27,957 nucleotides of DNA from Synechococcus sp. Its GTDB lineage: Bacteria > Cyanobacteriota > Cyanobacteriia > Thermostichales > PCC-7336. The DNA lies in assembly GCA_051439425.1 (NCBI GenBank), contig JBFRWD010000050.1, forward strand, positions 1 through 27,957, written 5' to 3'. Below the pieces are notes generated by a model. The model did not search any database, was not told where the DNA came from, and was given only the letters and a program-made list of their open reading frames with translations. The number at the start of each line of letters is the position of its first letter. Position 1 is the first letter of the stretch. Positions 2,989-12,308 of the stretch are shown here, piece by piece. Both the position numbers and the translations under genes were made by a program.

Positions 2989-3627
2989 TTACTCGACATT
3001 GACGACCATTATTGAGTTCCAACTGCCTCCCGATCTCGACTGGCGCTGTCTCGACAGAACCTGACGGGCTCCCGTCACAGTTCCAGATCGATTGAAATAG
3101 GGGCTGTGTCCCTGAGCAGCTTCAACTACAGCAACCTGTATATCAGTCCAGCCATGTCCAGCCATTGCAATTGTGTTATTTCCAGGTTGCAGATAACCAT
3201 TCAATCTCAGACCATTGAGCTCGCTTAAGCGGCCAATTGTCCTGCCATTCATGGTGACAGTACCTTCTCCATCCCCAGATACCAGCAGTACGTAGTCTCG
3301 GGTGGAGAGATGGCCGATGGGAATGCTGCCAGAGGAAGAGGTGGAAACGGTGGAGGAGGATGAAACATTGCGGGAGAACTGCGGGCTGTTTGAATATGAG
3401 GTGCCAAACGACTGGTGAGAGGAGAACGACTGCGAGGAGAACGATTGGGACGAGTTATTGGTACTCACGACTGCTCCTTCGCGATTGGTGTCTACGCGAA
3501 CATCATCTGTTACCACCGTAACCGAGCCGTCTGCTCCCGTGCGGACAATGACGCCAGCCCACACGCCGTAACCGCCAATCGCTGCAATTCCTAAGGCAAT
3601 CGCCCCGATTTTTAGCAGATTAACCAT
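2989..3627 (-). CDS. Exported Ser-rich hypothetical protein with a beta-rich C-terminal domain
   Basis: ATG at 3627 with GGAGG RBS; hydrophobic N-terminus (LLKIGAIALGIAAIGGYGVWA); SSQSF repeats; C-terminal region with GTVTMNGRTIG...LNGYLQPGNNTIAMAG. Confidence 0.8.
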   Translation of the reverse strand: MVNLLKIGAIALGIAAIGGYGVWAGVIVRTGADGSVTVVTDDVRVDTNREGAVVSTNNSSQSFSSQSFSSHQSFGTSYSNSPQFSRNVSSSSTVSTSSSGSIPIGHLSTRDYVLLVSGDGEGTVTMNGRTIGRLSELNGLRLNGYLQPGNNTIAMAGHGWTDIQVAVVEAAQGHSPYFNRSGTVTGARQVLSRQRQSRSGGSWNSIMVVNVE

Positions 3628-3782
3628 GAGTTGCCTCCCACCCAATTAATACATCTAGGGGTTGTTGCATCACCTCAATTCCCACCTCTCCCCCTCTCTG
3701 TTCCCTCGTCTTTAGGCTTGCTGCAATACATTTGTCGTTTGATGACACATTCCATAGCAAGCCTGAACTATCAAGACTAGAA

Positions 3783-3823
3783 GGGCGATTGCTTCCCCAA
3801 GGACGTTAGAGGAGCGATCGCCC
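3783..3823. terminator. Imperfect inverted repeat just downstream of the 3832 stop (possible terminator or mRNA stabiliser)
   Basis: gggcgattgcttc (3783-3795) pairs with ggagcgatcgccc (3811-3823) at 11/13 Watson-Crick positions; contains a HIP1 site; U-tract weak. Confidence 0.4.
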
Positions 3824-3831
3824 GTGGGCGT

Positions 3832-4197
3832 TTATCGACGCAAGCGTATGCGGGGCAAGGCTAATTGAATTTGTTGCCCGTTTTGTACGCTAACGGCATT
3901 TTGAACACTGGGGGCCACCACAATATCTTTATCGATGGGGATATTGCGGCGATTGGGGCCGCGTCGGCGCGGAGCCCTGGGTCGACCGTTGCGTACCTGT
4001 GCCTGTCCTTGCTCTTGGATCAGAACAGCTTCTTGGCGATCGACGTCGAATCCAATTTGGAGCTGCTGAGCGTTTTGGACACTAACGGAGTTTTGGATAT
4101 TGGGGGCGATCGTAATGCTGCCAGCCATGACTGGTGCTCCGATCGCCAAGGCTCCGCCAATGCCTGCAGTCGCTGTAGCGAGTCGCAACCATACCAT
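3832..4197 (-). CDS. Small exported Gln/Asn-rich repeat protein with an Arg-rich linker (amyloid-like candidate B)
   Basis: GGAGGA RBS; signal peptide ending VMA-G; repeats ITIAPNIQNSVSVQNAQQLQI and IVVAPSVQNAVSVQNGQQIQL; starts 16 nt after the upstream gene's stop. Confidence 0.85.
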   Translation of the reverse strand: MVWLRLATATAGIGGALAIGAPVMAGSITIAPNIQNSVSVQNAQQLQIGFDVDRQEAVLIQEQGQAQVRNGRPRAPRRRGPNRRNIPIDKDIVVAPSVQNAVSVQNGQQIQLALPRIRLRR

Positions 4198-4213
4198 TGT
4201 TCAGTCCTCCCGA

Positions 4214-4615
4214 TTAGCGGCCGCGACGAACGCGACGGACTGCCGTGTTTTGGTCGAGTAGGTTGACGTTATTGGAGTTTTGGATGATGTCAGATGCTCG
4301 GCCAAATCCCAACCCCTCTTGCTCTTGGATGTTGGTTTGAACGCCGGTCACAGTTTGCTGCACTGTTCCGCGACGACCGCGCCCGAAGAACCTACCGCGT
4401 CCTCGACGACCCGAACCGGTTCGTTCGAAGACATCGGCTCGTTGATTGAGGTTTTGAATGTTGGTGCTGTTCTGCAAGATGTCACCATCCCCTTCAGCGT
4501 ATTGAAACTGATCGGATTGCTGAATACCGGTGACAGTTTGGTTGACACCGGCCATTGCAGGAGAGGCAAAGCCGAGTGCTAGCAGAGAACCAATCGCCAA
4601 ATACTTAATGGACAT
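4214..4615 (-). CDS. Small exported Gln/Asn-rich repeat protein with an Arg/Gly-rich linker (amyloid-like candidate A)
   Basis: ATG at 4615 (MSIKYLAIGSLLALGFASPAMA-G, Sec signal peptide); repeats VNQTVTGIQQSDQFQ..DILQNSTNIQNLNQ and VQQTVTGVQTNIQEQ..DIIQNSNNVNLLDQ. Confidence 0.85.
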   Translation of the reverse strand: MSIKYLAIGSLLALGFASPAMAGVNQTVTGIQQSDQFQYAEGDGDILQNSTNIQNLNQRADVFERTGSGRRGRGRFFGRGRRGTVQQTVTGVQTNIQEQEGLGFGRASDIIQNSNNVNLLDQNTAVRRVRRGR

Positions 4616-5040
4616 GAACCGTAAGCCCAAAACAACTATGGGTTCAGCATATTCTCCACGTTTGGGGAGGCTCTACCCTCCAGCACGTAGTGTCTGTCGC
4701 CGGGATGGGAAGAAATTGGATGGGGTAATTGCAGACTGAATTACGCGTGAAAGAACTTGAAATGGAGGGGAAAGACTGGCTTGTTGCGAACGATGAGGTT
4801 TGTATATATGGCTGTGGTTGTGGGACAGAATAGCCTCCGCCAGTCGTCGTAAGGGGCGAGAGGTACGAGATTTCTCCAGTTATTGGGGAGGAATGAATTT
4901 GTTTGAGGCTTTTGCGTTGAGGTCTGAGTACCGCCTCCATTGCAGTTCTTGTCGAAAAATGCCCTGCCCTTTATCAAGGCCAAGGCACACATTCGGTGGG
5001 GTTGGGTCAGTTGCGATCTCCACCCATATGGAAGGCCGGG

Positions 5041-5493
5041 TTAAGAGGGCTCTACTTTAATGGTGATTTTGTCGGATAGGACAGGATTGTCGTGGGGAAT
5101 ATGTAGGTGGTTGCCCAGTAGAAGTTGTAGGGTGTGTTCGCCGGGGGGCAAGGTGAGTTCTGCTTCGGTTTGACCTTTGCCAAAGTGGCGGACGCTATCG
5201 CTTTTGGGCAGTGACATTTTCATGTCGGGTAATTCTGCCAAGTCCACCAGCAGGTGGTGGTGACCGGAGTTGGCTTTTTCAACGCCTGCAGGAGCCACTT
5301 CCATGCCGGAGAGTCCGAACTGAATACTAAAAGGGCTGGTGACGGTATCGCCATTTTGAGGCTCGACGATGTAAGCACGAGCGGATTTGGGGGCGTGAGA
5401 GATGAATTCATCTGCTGTTGCCTGCGGTGTTCCCGCAAACCACCAACAGAGCACCAAGGCGATTGCTCCCAAGAGCACAGCAGTTCGTTTCAT
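5041..5493 (-). CDS. DUF4399 domain exported protein
   Basis: Signal peptide; family motifs FGLSGMEVAPAG, GHHHLLVD, HFGKGQTEAELTLPPGEHTLQLLLG. Confidence 0.88.
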   Translation of the reverse strand: MKRTAVLLGAIALVLCWWFAGTPQATADEFISHAPKSARAYIVEPQNGDTVTSPFSIQFGLSGMEVAPAGVEKANSGHHHLLVDLAELPDMKMSLPKSDSVRHFGKGQTEAELTLPPGEHTLQLLLGNHLHIPHDNPVLSDKITIKVEPS

Positions 5494-6466: not shown

Positions 6467-7750
6467 CTAATGTTGAGGCCAGCGATTATCAATTTCCTTT
6501 AAGACGGTTTCTAGGTCTGCATCTCCGCCAGTCAGGTTGAGGATGCCTTCCCAGAACGCTCCTGTCCCTACTTCTCCTGGCATCAGATCCGAGCCATCAA
6601 AGCGTAATGTGTCTGCCGCTGCTAGAATCTCTGCTTGCTTACGAGTATTGGGTTCGGTGTAATTCGCGATCGCAATTCCCCGAAATGGAGACACGAACCC
6701 CTCGGCCTGCGACCAAATACGGTGGGGCTCTTCAGTCGTCAGATATTCCATCATGGCCAGTGTTTCCTGTGTTTCGTTCAACAGGCCAAACTGCTCTCCC
6801 GAGACCAACAGCGGGTTGCCAAACTCGGGGTTCATTGCAGGAAATGGAAACACCCCCACATCGCGGCCGGACTCAACGCTATCAGGGAAAAACGTCGAAA
6901 TAAAACTAGCCTGACGATGCAGGTAACATCCCGGAGGATCGTCAAACAATGCCGCGGGTGAATCTCCAAACGGAGTACTAAGCGTTCCTATCGCACCTCC
7001 CAAAACGCGATCGCCATCCTGTACCAGTTCAGTAAAGGAATTAAACGCTGCCGCGATCGCCGGATCGGAAAACGGCGTCTTTCCACTCACCCAACTGTCG
7101 TACACCTGTGGCCCCGACTGCCGCAGCACAAATTCCTCCACCCAATCCGTCCCCGGCCACCCCGAAGCTGCCCCACTCTCCAACCCAATACACCAAGGAA
7201 TGTTGCCGTCGCCTACCATACGATCGCTCAGTGCCTGTAACTCTTCCCAGCTGTTCGGCACCTCGTACCCCTCTGCCTCAAATGCTGGGGGACTGTACCA
7301 CACCAGACTTTTGAGAGACACCCTGGCCCAGATGCCGAAGGGGCGATTGTCTACGCTGGCCAACTCCAGCCACTGGAGATCGAACGCCGATGTCAGCTGC
7401 TCGTCACTCAGCACGTTATCCAGCGCCACCAGCTCCCCCTCTCGTGCTAAATCTGCCATCAACCCCGGTTGGGGAAATAAGGCAACATCGGGGGGATTGC
7501 TCGCCGCCAATCGAGTTATCAACACCGTGGCGAATTGGTCGGTGCCTTCATACATAACATCAATGCCACTGGCGTCTTCAAACGGAGCAAATACTTCGGC
7601 GATCGTGGCCTCTCCATCTCCCGTTATGCTGCCCAGAATGGTGACAGTTGGATTGGTAGGGGGCTTGCTACAGGCAGAAAGTATGGTGAGGGACGCGATT
7701 GCCCCACCGAGAACAACAGCAGATCGAGTGGACGCGAATGGCGAACTCAA
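6467..7750 (-). CDS. Carbohydrate ABC transporter substrate-binding lipoprotein (AglE/GgtB-like alpha-glucoside family)
   Basis: Probable TTG start at 7750, 4 nt after the upstream stop; lipobox LSAC; motifs PPDVALFPQPGL, KSLVWY, PWCIGLESGAASGWPGTDWVE, CYLHRQASF, RFDGSDLMPGEVG. Confidence 0.9.
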   Translation of the reverse strand: MSSPFASTRSAVVLGGAIASLTILSACSKPPTNPTVTILGSITGDGEATIAEVFAPFEDASGIDVMYEGTDQFATVLITRLAASNPPDVALFPQPGLMADLAREGELVALDNVLSDEQLTSAFDLQWLELASVDNRPFGIWARVSLKSLVWYSPPAFEAEGYEVPNSWEELQALSDRMVGDGNIPWCIGLESGAASGWPGTDWVEEFVLRQSGPQVYDSWVSGKTPFSDPAIAAAFNSFTELVQDGDRVLGGAIGTLSTPFGDSPAALFDDPPGCYLHRQASFISTFFPDSVESGRDVGVFPFPAMNPEFGNPLLVSGEQFGLLNETQETLAMMEYLTTEEPHRIWSQAEGFVSPFRGIAIANYTEPNTRKQAEILAAADTLRFDGSDLMPGEVGTGAFWEGILNLTGGDADLETVLKEIDNRWPQH

Positions 7751-7754
7751 ATAT

Positions 7755-8987
7755 CTATTCCGCGTCAGCCCCAACCTCTTCCGGTTCAGTTCCGTCAGCA
7801 TCGAGCACATCTCCACCCGTATTGTCCGTTCCATCTATGCTTGCTTCAGCATCTGTGGGCTCGCCGTTGCCGTTACCCTCAACATCCCCCTCAACCGGCT
7901 CGGGAAATGCTGGAGCATCCTCAACAATCGTTGCCCCCCTCGGAATCACCAGCTCCACTGTTGTGTCTAGAGTGGTACGTGGCTCTACTTCAACCTCCGT
8001 CTCCTCGTCCACCTCAAACCGAGCTAGGGGTGCCACATCATCCTCTGCCCACTCCTCACCAATCTCAGTGGTCATTCGAGTGACTTGGACTTGGTAAATC
8101 TGCTCTAGTTCCGCCGCATTTAGCGTGGCATTCTCCTCTGCCTCATAGTCAGACTCAGCAATTTCCTGAACCCGAACTTCGCCGCGATCGTCAATCGTCC
8201 ACAGCTCTAGCCGACTGCGCGATCGCAAACTCAAGGTATTCGTCTCTGTGGCCTGACTGAGCACGTCCACCTTGACTACCACCAGGGCCTCTAACCCCAA
8301 AAAATCAAAAAACTGATTGACGTTTTCCTGCTCGATCTCGTCGTGTTCCAAAATGTCAAACAACGGGCTGCCAATCTCCTCCAAGACGGGCTGTAGGTTG
8401 CGATTATCCAGCGGTAATACATTGCTAGATTCGGGGACTAGCCCCAACCGCACTGCCTCGGATGCCATCCGCTGCGATAAGAATTCCGTGTGGGCTAACG
8501 TGCCAACCCCAATCACCCCCAACCGGGTGCGGGGCTGTGGCCGAATGGGAATGGAAAGCTGCACGGCCACCGGAGTGGTCAAGCCGCCAAATAGCCAAAT
8601 CTCCTCGTTCAAGTCTTCGTAATCGGGATGTCGCACCGACAGCAGCCAGCGCCCGGGCAATCCCCCATCCAACTCGAATGTCCCGCTAGAGTCAGTGCGA
8701 ACCACCTGCCGGAATAATCCCGTCCGCTCGCCCCCTGTTCGGGAACCCCGCACAATTACACGAGCGCCATCAACTGGGCGACCGGCTTGATTGGTCACTT
8801 GGCCGACCACTTTCCCCAAGCTATTGCTCTCAATTTGAACGGTGGTCTCTTCAGTTTCTTCGTCGGGTGTGTCAGGCGATGCCGATTCCTGCGCCAGACA
8901 GGGATAACTGGTAATGCCCATAGCAATGGCTGCGGCTAAAGAAAGCGATGCCGATCTGATGATTGAGTTGGTTTGTAGAAATGTCAT
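7755..8987 (-). CDS. Exported acidic protein with a carboxypeptidase regulatory-like domain
   Basis: ATG at 8987, signal peptide (..PCLA-QE); GQVTNQAGRPVDGARV..TDSSGTFEL..LPGRWLLSVRHPDY; acidic N- and C-terminal tails. Confidence 0.85.
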   Translation of the reverse strand: MTFLQTNSIIRSASLSLAAAIAMGITSYPCLAQESASPDTPDEETEETTVQIESNSLGKVVGQVTNQAGRPVDGARVIVRGSRTGGERTGLFRQVVRTDSSGTFELDGGLPGRWLLSVRHPDYEDLNEEIWLFGGLTTPVAVQLSIPIRPQPRTRLGVIGVGTLAHTEFLSQRMASEAVRLGLVPESSNVLPLDNRNLQPVLEEIGSPLFDILEHDEIEQENVNQFFDFLGLEALVVVKVDVLSQATETNTLSLRSRSRLELWTIDDRGEVRVQEIAESDYEAEENATLNAAELEQIYQVQVTRMTTEIGEEWAEDDVAPLARFEVDEETEVEVEPRTTLDTTVELVIPRGATIVEDAPAFPEPVEGDVEGNGNGEPTDAEASIDGTDNTGGDVLDADGTEPEEVGADAE

Positions 8988-9117
8988 CTCATTACCAAAT
9001 CTCACAGTTCTTTGCCTCAAAAAATTCGTCTCAATTAGCAGCTACGGTCTTTAGGCATCTTGTTTTCAGCTTTCGGCATCTGGCTAGACATGGCAAATAG
9101 CACCAATGTCTTGGCTA

Positions 9118-11481
9118 CTACGAAAACGGTGCTCCAGCCTCTTGCCACTGTTCCAGTAAATCTGGCGCCATGCTCTTCGCTTGCCGCCGGAACAAACCGG
9201 CTGCCGCGTCTTCAAACATGCGATTGCCCCCTACTTCGTCCTTGTCAAACGCTTCGTAATATCCTGCCCGATCTCCAGGGTTGTCCTCCTGTAAGTCCAC
9301 CACAATCATGACTCCTCGGCTGCGCAGTTCATTGGGGGTGAAATCGGGGATGTTGACGGGTACTTGGGGGACAAAATAGCGGATGGCTAAATTGAGGAAT
9401 GGGTTACCCCGTCGGTCAAACTCGCGCGAAATATCCATGTGGGTGAGGACGATGTAGCGCAGCCCCAAACTGTTACCAATCACTTTCAGCCGCTCTAAAT
9501 CGGGGGTGAAGCGATTGTCGCGATCGATAATGTCTAGTCCTTCTGCTAGCGGTGCCAGTTGCTGAAACTCTTCCCAGACACCAATCGGACCGATTAATAA
9601 TTCCACCGGTCGATCGCCTGCTGTTTCCTGTAATGCAGCATGAACTTGAGCGGCCAGGTCATCGGAGAATGGCTCGCGATCGGGAATCACACCAATGCCA
9701 ATACTGTCTTCGGGAGGACGACCGGGGGGCAGTTGAATTTGGGTGGAGGAGACGAAACCGGAGCGCACTTGAATCTGGCTACTGACGGTGGGAAAGCCCG
9801 GCACGCTGATGTCTGCTAAATAGACCCCGGTGGGGACATTGGGAATCAGAAAGCTACCGTCGGGTAACAGATTGAGTTGAGTATCGGGGGCATCTCCGCG
9901 AATGTTCTTGAGTCGGATAATCCCTCCCGACACCGGATTGCCTGCGAGATCGACTACGCGGCCCGCGGCACTTCCCGTATTGGGGCGGGGGGCTAAGTCT
10001 ACAGCGGCTTCAGGATCGATGTCCGGCAACTCCAGCCAATTCAGTTGTGGTTCACCCGCCTCGGCCACCAATATTGCTGGACCATTTTCGGTTGGCAGGA
10101 ATGATATTCCAATGGGGGAATCTCCCAGGTCGTACACCGCTTGCAACTCACCCGTTTCTAGATTGGCCACTTGTAGGTGATTGCTGTCGCGAGAGGTTGC
10201 GTAGGCGAACTGACCGTCAGAGGAGAGAGCAACGCGGGTGGGTCGCCAGTTGAGACCAATGGTTTGCACGGCTTCGCCACTGGCTCTGCGGTCAAATACG
10301 GTTAGATCGCTGGTCTCAGAATTCAGCACCACCACCCGTTGAGATTCCGGGTCGAGGGCAATGTCTTCGGGGTTGATGCCACTGCGTAACATGGCCAGCA
10401 GCTCACCATTGTCGGCATTGAGCACCACCAACCCGAGCGGACTGTCGTTGTCGACGGTAATGAGCAGGTTGTTGGAAACCGGGTTGAACGCGATCGCCAG
10501 CGGAGGCACGGGAACCGGTAGTGTACGGGCCGATTCCTCCGACAATTGCATGATGGAAATGCTGTTGAGGTTGGGATGGGTGGCAAAGATCCGACCGTTT
10601 TCTCCGTCAAAATCAATATCGAGCACCCCGGCTCCCAATCCGTAACCCTTGCGGATTTCCAGAGTGTTACCTTCCAGCACCACTAGGCCATCCGAGTTGA
10701 TACCGGCGGCATACACCACATTGTTGATGGGGTCGTAGCGCACGGTGTTGGGCTCGAAGCCGATCGCTGTTTGGGCCAAAATTGCACCGGATGCCAGATC
10801 GACCAATGCGACGGACTGCTCTTGCAGTAGGCCGACTGCCGCTAGCGTTTGCCCATCGCGCTCGACGATATCAAACCGATCGACAGCACTTCGTAGCGGG
10901 ATGGTTGCAACTGATGTTAACCCAGTGCCAGACTCCCCTTCGCCGTCAGCATCAGCCGTTTCTGTATCGTCGGTATCATCTCCAAGTTGTTCGTTTTCAG
11001 ATGCGGTATCTCCGGAGGCGGTATCTTCAGGCTCGATTTCAGTACTTCCAGAAGCGGCATCACCAGGTTCGATGTCTCCAGACTCAGCAGTAACGGGGTC
11101 GCTTGTCGTGTCGGTTTCTGGATTATCCGTATCTTGACTATCAATCTCTGAATTATCAGCTCCTTGGCTACCAGTCTCTTCGCCAGTGGTGTCTTCGCTA
11201 GCAGCTTCATCGGGCCGGTCTTCTGCTTCCGATTCGACAGAATCAGTAGAATCCAGATTGACTAAATCGAACAGATCGAGAGGCTCGGAGTCTGGTGCAA
11301 TCTCTAATTCTGTTGCAACCTCTAACTCTGTCCCCTCATCAGGCTCGGATAATGCTTCAGAACCCGACACATCTGACGGTATTTTTTCCTCCGCCTGAGC
11401 TCTAACTTCAATAACTGTTAATGGAGTCAGCGCCCATACAGGCAACAGCAACAAAGCAAGCAGCGACAGGTATTTCAGCAT
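9118..11481 (-). CDS. Large exported protein: acidic low-complexity region, YncE/YVTN-type beta-propeller, carboxypeptidase regulatory-like domain, C-terminal alpha/beta module
   Basis: Probable start MLKYLSLLALLLL at 11481 (upstream ATGs possible); blade repeats G.xP..I.xD/NP; GRVVDLAGNPVSGG..GSFLIPNVPTGVYLADISVPGF. Confidence 0.85.
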   Translation of the reverse strand: MLKYLSLLALLLLPVWALTPLTVIEVRAQAEEKIPSDVSGSEALSEPDEGTELEVATELEIAPDSEPLDLFDLVNLDSTDSVESEAEDRPDEAASEDTTGEETGSQGADNSEIDSQDTDNPETDTTSDPVTAESGDIEPGDAASGSTEIEPEDTASGDTASENEQLGDDTDDTETADADGEGESGTGLTSVATIPLRSAVDRFDIVERDGQTLAAVGLLQEQSVALVDLASGAILAQTAIGFEPNTVRYDPINNVVYAAGINSDGLVVLEGNTLEIRKGYGLGAGVLDIDFDGENGRIFATHPNLNSISIMQLSEESARTLPVPVPPLAIAFNPVSNNLLITVDNDSPLGLVVLNADNGELLAMLRSGINPEDIALDPESQRVVVLNSETSDLTVFDRRASGEAVQTIGLNWRPTRVALSSDGQFAYATSRDSNHLQVANLETGELQAVYDLGDSPIGISFLPTENGPAILVAEAGEPQLNWLELPDIDPEAAVDLAPRPNTGSAAGRVVDLAGNPVSGGIIRLKNIRGDAPDTQLNLLPDGSFLIPNVPTGVYLADISVPGFPTVSSQIQVRSGFVSSTQIQLPPGRPPEDSIGIGVIPDREPFSDDLAAQVHAALQETAGDRPVELLIGPIGVWEEFQQLAPLAEGLDIIDRDNRFTPDLERLKVIGNSLGLRYIVLTHMDISREFDRRGNPFLNLAIRYFVPQVPVNIPDFTPNELRSRGVMIVVDLQEDNPGDRAGYYEAFDKDEVGGNRMFEDAAAGLFRRQAKSMAPDLLEQWQEAGAPFS

Positions 11482-11597
11482 AGAGAGAGCAGTGTATGGC
11501 ATGCCAACCGACAAGCTATCGGAGAGCAGGTCACCGATAACCGATTCAATTGAATCAATCATTCAATAGGAAGGCATCCTAAAGCGCGATCGCCTTC

Positions 11598-12308
11598 CTA
11601 GTCTCTCAATACATATCCCACACCGCGTACGGTTTGAATGAGGCGTTTTTCCCCCTCTTGTTCTACTTTCAAGCGCAAATATCGAATGTAGACCTCAATA
11701 ATGTTGGAGTCTCCCATAAAGTCGTAGCCCCAGACATTTTCTAAAATTTGCTGGCGGGTGAGTACCTGGCGGGGGTGTTCCATCAAGTAGCGCAGTAGGT
11801 CGAACTCCTTCGCCGTTAGCTCGATGCGGCGGACGGCAGCCTCATCGTCATCCGATCTCCGCATGACTTCGCGGGTAATGGGATCTAAGGAGAGATCGAG
11901 GAAGCTGAGTTTTCCTTCCCCTTGGCCGCCATATCGCCGCAGGTGAGCGCGAACCCGAGCCAGTAATTCCTCGATGCTAAAGGGCTTTACAACGTAATCG
12001 TCGGCACCGGCATCTAACCCCTCGACGCGATCGACTACATCATCTTTGGCCGTCATCAAAATCACCGGTACCCGATTGCCAGTTTGGCGCAATCGCCGAC
12101 AAATCTCTATACCCGAAATCCCCGGTAACATCCAATCTAGAAGAATTAAATCGGGTTCTTGTTCGCGAGCGGCCATCATTCCACTCGTTCCGTCATTGGC
12201 CACCGATACGCGATACCCTTCGTATCCCAACTCCAGCTCGATAAATTTAGCCAGCTTTTCTTCATCTTCAACAATGAGAATGTGCCCTTTCGGAGTCGAA
12301 CCCGTCAT
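11598..12308 (-). CDS. OmpR/PhoB-family response regulator
   Basis: Receiver ILIVEDE, LILLDWMLPG, GADDYVVKPF; winged-helix LTAKEFDLL, IQTVRGVGY; no kinase gene adjacent. Confidence 0.95.
   Translation of the reverse strand: MTGSTPKGHILIVEDEEKLAKFIELELGYEGYRVSVANDGTSGMMAAREQEPDLILLDWMLPGISGIEICRRLRQTGNRVPVILMTAKDDVVDRVEGLDAGADDYVVKPFSIEELLARVRAHLRRYGGQGEGKLSFLDLSLDPITREVMRRSDDDEAAVRRIELTAKEFDLLRYLMEHPRQVLTRQQILENVWGYDFMGDSNIIEVYIRYLRLKVEQEGEKRLIQTVRGVGYVLRD

Follow-up and report, generated by a model that had tools for sequence, protein, structure and literature searches.

The contig JBFRWD010000050.1 of Synechococcus sp. (assembly GCA_051439425.1; GTDB lineage Thermostichales, PCC-7336), analysed here over a stretch of 27,957 nucleotides that we call the window, carries a cassette of minus-strand genes for small secreted proteins. 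Two of these genes, A and B, encode chains of imperfect repeats in which glutamines recur at fixed spacing. A third, C, follows B and encodes a protein with a beta-sandwich domain. The positions of all features are collected in Table 1. A preliminary description of this DNA had reported A and B as two co-oriented genes 16 nt apart and had proposed that their products are paired subunits of an amyloid-like fibre; the arrangement is confirmed, with both genes on the minus strand. The spacer between them holds a GGAGG ribosome-binding site, which suggests that A and B are co-transcribed and that their translation is coupled.

Signal peptides of A and B were assigned by rule, from small residues at positions -3 and -1, a basic n-region and a hydrophobic h-region. 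Cleavage falls between MSIKYLAIGSLLALGFASPAMA and the following Gly in A, and at ...ALAIGAPVMA↓GS in B. The -3/-1 rule is obeyed by all 19 distinct N-termini of A and by 19 of the 20 distinct N-termini of B (38/39 together); the lone exception, ARA↓GG in B, is an offset artefact. Both proteins show the n-h-c organization and the AXA end of Sec-exported substrates of signal peptidase I, in agreement with the Sec signal peptide first proposed for each. The mature chains contain neither Cys nor Trp, consist to about 24% of Gln and Asn (Q+N) and are strongly basic, with isoelectric points (pI) of 11.4 for A and 11.9 for B. Their lengths bear out the earlier picture of Cys-free repeat chains of about 95-110 residues. 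Mature A is made of two Gln-ladder units of about 40 residues, separated by an Arg/Gly-rich linker and followed by a basic tail, RRVRRGR. Mature B consists of three Gln-ladder half-units, R1, R2 and R3; a basic linker of Pro and Arg separates R2 from R3, and the chain closes with the tail LALPRIRLRR.

The spacing Q-x5-Q-x3-Q-x-Q occurs twice in A and three times in B, and A has two further segments of the form Q-x3-N-x5-Q, at residues 48 and 112. Every one of these elements of the preliminary description was recovered by regular-expression (regex) search. The two units of A are identical at 20 of 43 aligned columns, and R1 and R3 of B at 13 of 24; to judge from the sequences, the motifs stem from internal duplication. 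When each mature chain was shuffled 100,000 times with its composition preserved, A had 0.023 motifs on average, with the observed two matched by 38/100,000 shuffles, and B had 0.035, with the observed three matched by 0/100,000. Of the 31,684 stop-to-stop frames with 60 aa or more in the whole 4.8-Mb genome, just five contain at least two motifs. Two of the five are A and B; the other three are long Q-rich frames (398-1014 aa) unrelated to the pair, one coding for a Pro/Gln-rich membrane protein, one ATPase-like with coiled coils, and a third.

Comparison with the closest relative (locus L017) puts the ratio of nonsynonymous to synonymous substitution rates (dN/dS) of A at 0.089, that of B at 0.106 and that of C at 0.134. 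All three are under purifying selection, and we regard the genes as real because of this range of 0.09-0.13. Two open reading frames (ORFs) on the plus strand, opposite A and B, are less conserved than the minus-strand frames (62% identity vs 86% for the frame of A, and 70% vs 92% for that of B) and are therefore read as shadow ORFs. The GC content is 0.52-0.55 across the cassette, and the composition profile has no island-like shift.

Conservation was counted over pooled sets of 18 distinct A and 21 distinct B sequences. Of the 15 glutamines in A, 13 are invariant and the remaining two are kept in 17/18 sequences; in B, 14 of 15 are invariant and the last is kept in 20/21. The Gln spacing, on whose persistence in homologues the original proposal hung, is thus conserved in both sets. 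The half-units measure about 20-25 aa and have conserved Gly/Asn/Ala turn positions (VQN[AG]QQ) with Gly-rich loops between them. Cys is absent from all 39 sequences, and Q+N ranges from 18 to 30%. Linkers, C-terminal tails and the sign of the net charge vary among the relatives, with pI from 4.4 to 12.0 and some tails acidic; the Arg/Gly-rich linker and basic tails of the window are therefore clade-specific and not part of the family core. Invariant glutamines amid freely varying linkers, tails and charge are what would be expected if the glutamines themselves make the structure.

Two explanations that need no ordered assembly are judged by the same data. A and B could be disordered polar matrix or hydration proteins, forming a largely unstructured Gln-rich gel or coat without an ordered cross-beta core, which might, for instance, help cells in benthic habitats to withstand desiccation or salt. 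A low-confidence structure model, the very polar nature of A with its lack of hydrophobic periodicity, the low-complexity linkers and the variable charged tails would all suit such a coat. However, about 14 Gln and their flanking Val/Ile/Thr/Gly residues are position-invariant across two orders, which is far stricter than compositionally constrained disorder, and dN/dS is about 0.1. We consider a disordered coat improbable. It is harder still to see A and B as secreted cationic antimicrobial or competition peptides in which Arg-rich segments are the active part. The mature chains of the window are indeed small, secreted and basic, but the basic charge is not kept among orthologues (pI 4.4 to 12, some tails acidic), the conserved part is the Gln ladder and not the Arg tracts, and the cassette contains no immunity or transporter gene, so that this proposal is very improbable. 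Both explanations lose ground because conservation is positional and charge is not conserved.

The family is narrowly distributed. Among 5.8 billion protein clusters, searches returned nine proteins for A, the window's own included, and 11 for B. A profile of B gave seven matches among 1.84 billion representatives, five of them genuine; P0024 and P0025 from this search were rejected as unrelated repetitive proteins. A scan of 241 million metagenome records gave four loci. Named members come from marine cyanobacterial metagenome-assembled genomes (MAGs), from Synechococcus sp. PCC 7336 and from seven Gloeobacterales MAGs, including Aphanocapsa lilacina. Within the host order, A and B are present together in the same 5/30 genomes. 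The A profile matched nothing in a phylum-wide sample of 400 further cyanobacterial genomes, which evidently lacks the cassette-bearing Gloeobacterales MAGs. The proteins of locus L012 are on record for Synechococcus sp. PCC 7336 as hypothetical (B, WP_156820213.1; C, WP_156820211.1). On this evidence from sequence searches, A and B constitute a new family of early-branching cyanobacteria.

Conserved cyanobacterial homologue pairs, which the preliminary description would have counted as support for a new family, exist: A lies immediately upstream of B in 12/12 related loci, which belong to the PCC 7336 lineage and to Gloeobacterales. Gene C and a family that we call D are additions to this pair. 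A profile of C matches downstream of B in 9/12 related loci at E<=1e-4. The C protein starts with a signal peptide (VWA↓G) and has a conserved hairpin-like segment near its N terminus, VIVRTGADGSVTVVTD; a low-complexity linker rich in Ser connects this segment to a beta-sandwich of about 120 aa. Among relatives, the N-terminal segment follows the pattern V-x-V-x-T-G-x-D-G-S-V-x-V-x-T. AlphaFold2 (AF2) predicts the beta-sandwich, at residues ~92-212, with a predicted local distance difference test score (pLDDT) of ~90. Its best structural neighbours (VIA-align wide) are sugar-binding-type domains of GH2 and GH35 glycosidases, with Z-scores of 5.9 and 5.8; all neighbours lie below Z 8, where according to the tool a match may reflect a common arrangement only. 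A weak Pfam match to BetaGal_gal-bd (E 0.14) points in the same sugar-binding direction, and Foldseek found nothing in the PDB that matched the C model at E<=0.001. In one Gloeobacterales MAG, C is shortened and has lost most of the beta-sandwich; the signal peptide, the N-terminal hairpin and the last strand are kept.

Family D consists of further secreted Gln-ladder proteins, encoded by one or two genes between B and C in most relatives. Its consensus is IIPV-x-Q-x-Q...GGG...Q-x3-Q-x-Q-x-VNI, with invariant Gln. The number of units differs by lineage, from one to three, and the tails are charged (Arg/Gly, Arg/Asp or acidic). D is absent from its expected position between B and C in the window, where the gap is 204 nt, and was not found in the rest of the window's genome by a single-protein search followed by a profile search. 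A search for D over the whole phylum gave no match, even in a genome that carries the family, and therefore says nothing on how widely D occurs. Profile-profile alignment with hhalign gives an in-register match of D to B (probability 81%, E 1.3e-5) and a weaker alignment of D to A (probability 57%, E 1.1e-4). Direct comparison of A with B gives a BLASTP E of 0.29, and hhalign aligns the signal peptides only. Since D aligns in register with B and weakly with A, the three seem to be diverged families derived from one double half-unit (double-arch) of about 40 aa.

Table 1 Features of the A/B cassette, its surroundings and its relatives. Positions without a prefix refer to the window; prefixes denote other loci.
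Feature	Position	Strand	Description
Gene A	4214-4615	minus	133-aa precursor: 22-aa Sec-type signal peptide (AMA↓G) and 111-aa mature chain
Gene B	3832-4197	minus	121-aa precursor: 25-aa signal peptide (VMA↓G) and 96-aa mature chain
A-B spacer	4198-4213	minus	16 nt, coding strand TCGGGAGGACTGAACA; GGAGG Shine-Dalgarno sequence for B
A motif 1	4502-4540	minus	Residues 26-38, QTVTGIQQSDQFQ; regex; all four Q columns 18/18 distinct sequences
A motif 2	4319-4357	minus	Residues 87-99, QTVTGVQTNIQEQ; regex and alignment of distinct sequences
B motif 1	4057-4095	minus	Residues 35-47, QNSVSVQNAQQLQ; regex; Q columns 21/21
B motif 2	3997-4035	minus	Residues 55-67, QEAVLIQEQGQAQ; regex; one Q column 20/21, others 21/21
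B motif 3	3865-3903	minus	Residues 99-111, QNAVSVQNGQQIQ; regex; Q columns 21/21
Gene C	2989-3627	minus	212 aa, secreted, downstream of B; ATG at 3627 preceded by GGGAGG
Shortened C of a relative	L025:4724-5032		102 aa
Family D member	L018:4600-5067		
Family D members	L012:6418-6894 and 6891-7544		
Family D member	L023:4387-4809		
Family D member	L027:4360-4809		
Conserved non-coding region	4616-4792	minus	Upstream of A; ~180 nt, aligns well in three genomes of the genus
DUF4399 protein gene	5041-5493	minus	Secreted; E 4e-36; upstream of A
Terminator-like hairpin	4980-4961		Follows the DUF4399 gene
Shadow ORF opposite B	3865-4266	plus	133 aa
Shadow ORF opposite A	4280-4582	plus	100 aa
CsgG-family lipoprotein gene	G000:C110:50258-50845 (L016)		Other contig; E 3e-40; beside an OmpR-type response regulator gene and a NadA-like gene (the latter label read from the translation, without a family search)
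A and D with acidic or His-rich tails	L019:3601-3999 and 4426-4869		Contig shared with L015
ORF adjoining nusA	741-1316	minus	191 aa, no Pfam match
nusA	1396-2730	plus	
CarboxypepD_reg region	7755-9020 and 9118-11562; 11598-12308	minus	Two large CarboxypepD_reg-domain proteins by a solute-binding protein (6467-7834) and an OmpR-type response regulator

Neither A nor B belongs to a family that we could find. Searches of both gave no Pfam or NCBIfam family at E<=1 and no match to the sequence of any PDB chain, consistent with the earlier expectation that they match no characterised family. No paper on these genes was found in the literature searched, which covered few subscription journals. The nearest ESM Atlas entries to A and B are the same three cyanobacterial clusters of 116-141 aa, automatically named 'filamentous hemagglutinin ...'. 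They score 0.90-0.91 for A and 0.87-0.88 for B in feature space, a measure that comes with no alignment or E-value, and they lie beyond the reach of HMMER profiles built from A, B and D. As a lead only, these clusters and the two proteins may belong to a broader group of short, secreted and polar repeat proteins in cyanobacteria.

Detailed knowledge of functional amyloids is limited to a few bacterial systems, among them curli, Fap, TasA and the chaplins. Like the curli subunits CsgA and CsgB, A and B are small Sec-exported proteins encoded by adjacent genes and composed of imperfect repeats of about 20 residues with conserved Gln/Asn and Gly turns, and the proposed mechanism, stacked beta-arches with Gln ladders, would be common to both. 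Unlike in curli, the register of A and B is Q-x5-Q-x3-Q-x-Q, with four Gln per half-unit, the two proteins show no detectable paralogy to each other beyond the signal peptide, CsgE and CsgF were not found, CsgG is unlinked and the host is a basal cyanobacterium. Curli repeats are described as modular, with conserved Gln, Asn and Gly and a minimal repeat of X6QXGX2NX10 (PMC3521004). Regex searches for the curlin signature S-x5-Q-x-G-x-G-N-x-A-x3-Q and for the minimal Q-x-G-x2-N found neither in A nor in B, which upholds the view that their register is distinct from that of curlin.

These comparisons also bear on the possibility that A and B are divergent true members of curli (CsgA/CsgB) or Fap (FapB/FapC). 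The Fap system of Pseudomonas combines several Q/N-rich repeat subunits (FapB, FapC and FapE) in one operon with accessory proteins and the FapF channel. A and B resemble it in that multiple Q/N-rich repeat subunits are encoded together, and differ from it in having no family match in Pfam or NCBIfam at E<=1, where the presence of Fap models in the libraries is unconfirmed. No FapF-type channel or FapD-type protease is found among the cassette neighbours in the window or its relatives; these neighbours are NusA, DUF4399, a phosphodiesterase, a glycosyltransferase and unnamed secreted proteins. Secreted, Q/N-rich imperfect repeats from adjacent genes, together with a CsgG-family gene in the genome, would be in keeping with membership of either family. 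Yet no family or PDB sequence is matched, Curlin_rpt (PF07012) has no match genome-wide (the E. coli control was positive), CsgE and CsgF are not found, CsgG does not co-occur with the cassette and the minimal curli motif is absent. We regard such membership as largely refuted and extremely improbable.

The sole cyanobacterial precedent that we found is provided by the EbfG proteins, which carry a double-glycine leader and are served by a dedicated peptidase-exporter. EbfG1-4 of S. elongatus PCC 7942 are described as small secreted biofilm matrix proteins encoded in one operon (PMC9981879). According to the same account, EbfG1-3 have amyloid phenotypes in the C-DAG (for curli-dependent amyloid generator) assay, EbfG2 forms fibrils visible by transmission electron microscopy, and the amyloid hotspot is a short hydrophobic motif, A-phi-N-I-pi (PMC9981879). 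A and B are likewise small secreted cyanobacterial proteins encoded together. On that description of EbfG, they are set apart by their Gln-ladder repeats and their AXA Sec-type signal peptides.

The explanation that we favour, tentatively and as possible rather than probable, is that A and B form a curli-like polymer in the cell envelope or matrix. A and B would be Sec-exported structural proteins composed of strand-turn-strand half-units of about 20 residues, in which the Gln of Q-x5-Q-x3-Q-x-Q are held invariant. Once past the inner membrane, the half-units would stack as beta-arches, and the Gln side chains of stacked half-units would form hydrogen-bonded ladders. The result would be a cross-beta or beta-solenoid polymer of A and B, joined in relatives by D, in the cell envelope or the extracellular matrix. 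Curli works likewise, but its repeat is not related to that of A and B, and its machinery is lacking here. Secreted from the same cassette, C would probably link the polymer to glycans of the envelope via its sugar-binding-like beta-sandwich, and through its N-terminal hairpin it may either attach to the polymer or seed it. The stacking of beta-arches, the formation of a polymer, its placement beyond the outer membrane and the part played by C are what we infer. By this analogy the cassette would be most like curli in mechanism, yet it appears to stand outside every known amyloid family.

Several features of the cassette agree with this polymer. Invariant Gln at fixed spacing, conserved turns, Gly-rich loops, modular units and free linkers are what a stacked beta-arch with Gln ladders would demand, and the export signals, the lack of Cys and the conserved accessory protein C fit the picture too. 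B also shows some amphipathic beta periodicity, though a weak one (z 2.1; 49/2000 shuffles reach the observed value). Gloeobacterales are not known to have thylakoids, and the presence of the cassette in MAGs of this order would argue against a thylakoid-lumen destination. The division into a major and a minor (nucleator) subunit made in the preliminary description is not borne out: A and B show no detectable paralogy past the signal peptide, and relatives add family D. Neither gene order nor similarity tells which subunit, if any, nucleates.

A number of results weigh against a polymer. No outer-membrane channel, usher, protease or chaperone lies in or beside the cassette in the window or its relatives, and with no linked export machinery A and B may therefore never leave the periplasm. 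CsgE and CsgF were not found in the genome. A CsgG-family gene is present in 21/30 genomes of the order, in 2/5 with the cassette vs 19/25 without it; being found in only 2/5 cassette genomes, it is not taken to be the channel of this system. Curlin repeats are contiguous; the chains of A and B, by comparison, contain no more than 3-4 half-units each, and long charged linkers split these. A and B have no detectable mutual homology beyond the signal peptide, and the structural neighbours of C remain in the range that may reflect no more than a common arrangement. The AF2 monomer of B, computed from a shallow alignment of 12 sequences, has a mean pLDDT of 45 and a predicted template modelling score (pTM) of 0.14. 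Beta-type hydrophobic periodicity is absent from A (z -0.3; 1211/2000 shuffles reach the observed value), which is too polar for it. The predicted complex of mature A with mature B, each with its own alignment, has ipSAE values of 0.02 and 0.02 vs a mark of 0.32, without controls, and speaks neither for nor against a polymer.

The main rival, which we hold to be somewhat unlikely, is a non-fibrillar envelope complex. A, B and C would then be small discrete beta-structures, or would join in a defined hetero-oligomer, in the periplasm or cell wall, with no polymer; the role of the invariant Gln would be either to hold a monomeric beta-helix or beta-sandwich stable or to contact a ligand, be it glycan or peptidoglycan. 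The lack of an export channel or assembly factor in the cassette, the small number of half-units per chain and the sugar-binding-like domain of C would be natural in such a complex, and the strict co-occurrence of A, B and C suits a fixed complex as well as a fibre. Against this, AF2 gives no confident closed fold for B, albeit from a shallow alignment, the one to three units of D fit modular stacking better than a fixed globular fold, and a very high Q+N content without Cys is atypical of small stable periplasmic domains. A more far-reaching form of the polymer explanation is an undescribed functional-amyloid or beta-solenoid fibre system of early-branching cyanobacteria (Gloeobacterales and the PCC 7336 lineage), with paralogous A, B and D, with C as a glycan-binding anchor or nucleator, without a CsgG- or FapF-type channel and with a register unrelated to that of curlin or Fap. 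Taken with all its parts, we consider it unlikely.

Should the fibre system exist, it would represent an independent invention of Gln-ladder fibres, possibly an old one within cyanobacteria. A further Gln-ladder system, differing in register and lacking any known secretion machinery, would demonstrate the evolutionary freedom of this architecture and raise the question of how the subunits cross or assemble in the cyanobacterial envelope. As the cassette occurs in the deepest-branching cyanobacterial lineages, it may bear on early sheath or mat building. If A and B proved soluble and non-polymeric, they would still be a new envelope protein family, of narrower interest. Synechococcus sp. PCC 7336 is in culture. 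The cassette is directly testable in this strain, and the invariant Gln pattern lends itself to clean point mutations.

Upstream of A, the conserved non-coding region contains a GAATAT box about 35 nt before the ATG of A and an inverted repeat, GAACC...GGTTC, that abuts the start codon. It is probably the promoter/operator and leader of A; an Rfam scan of positions 3500-5200 gave no family at E<=1. Beyond the cassette, the flanks are not syntenic: in the window they hold NusA and DUF4399, in Gloeobacterales either a phosphodiesterase or a glycosyltransferase. The DUF4399 gene is probably not part of the cassette because it is a neighbour in the closest relative alone.

Some further observations were made on these loci. 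At one locus (L019), A and D end in strongly acidic or His-rich tails, with Asp runs and GGHGGHHG; the sign of the tail charge thus flips between this lineage and the basic window clade, and the Gln core stays fixed. The CsgG family is widespread in the order (21/30 genomes) with no curli subunits in sight. Within the window, nusA is adjoined by a minus-strand ORF, and the region with the CarboxypepD_reg-domain proteins may be another envelope or surface module.

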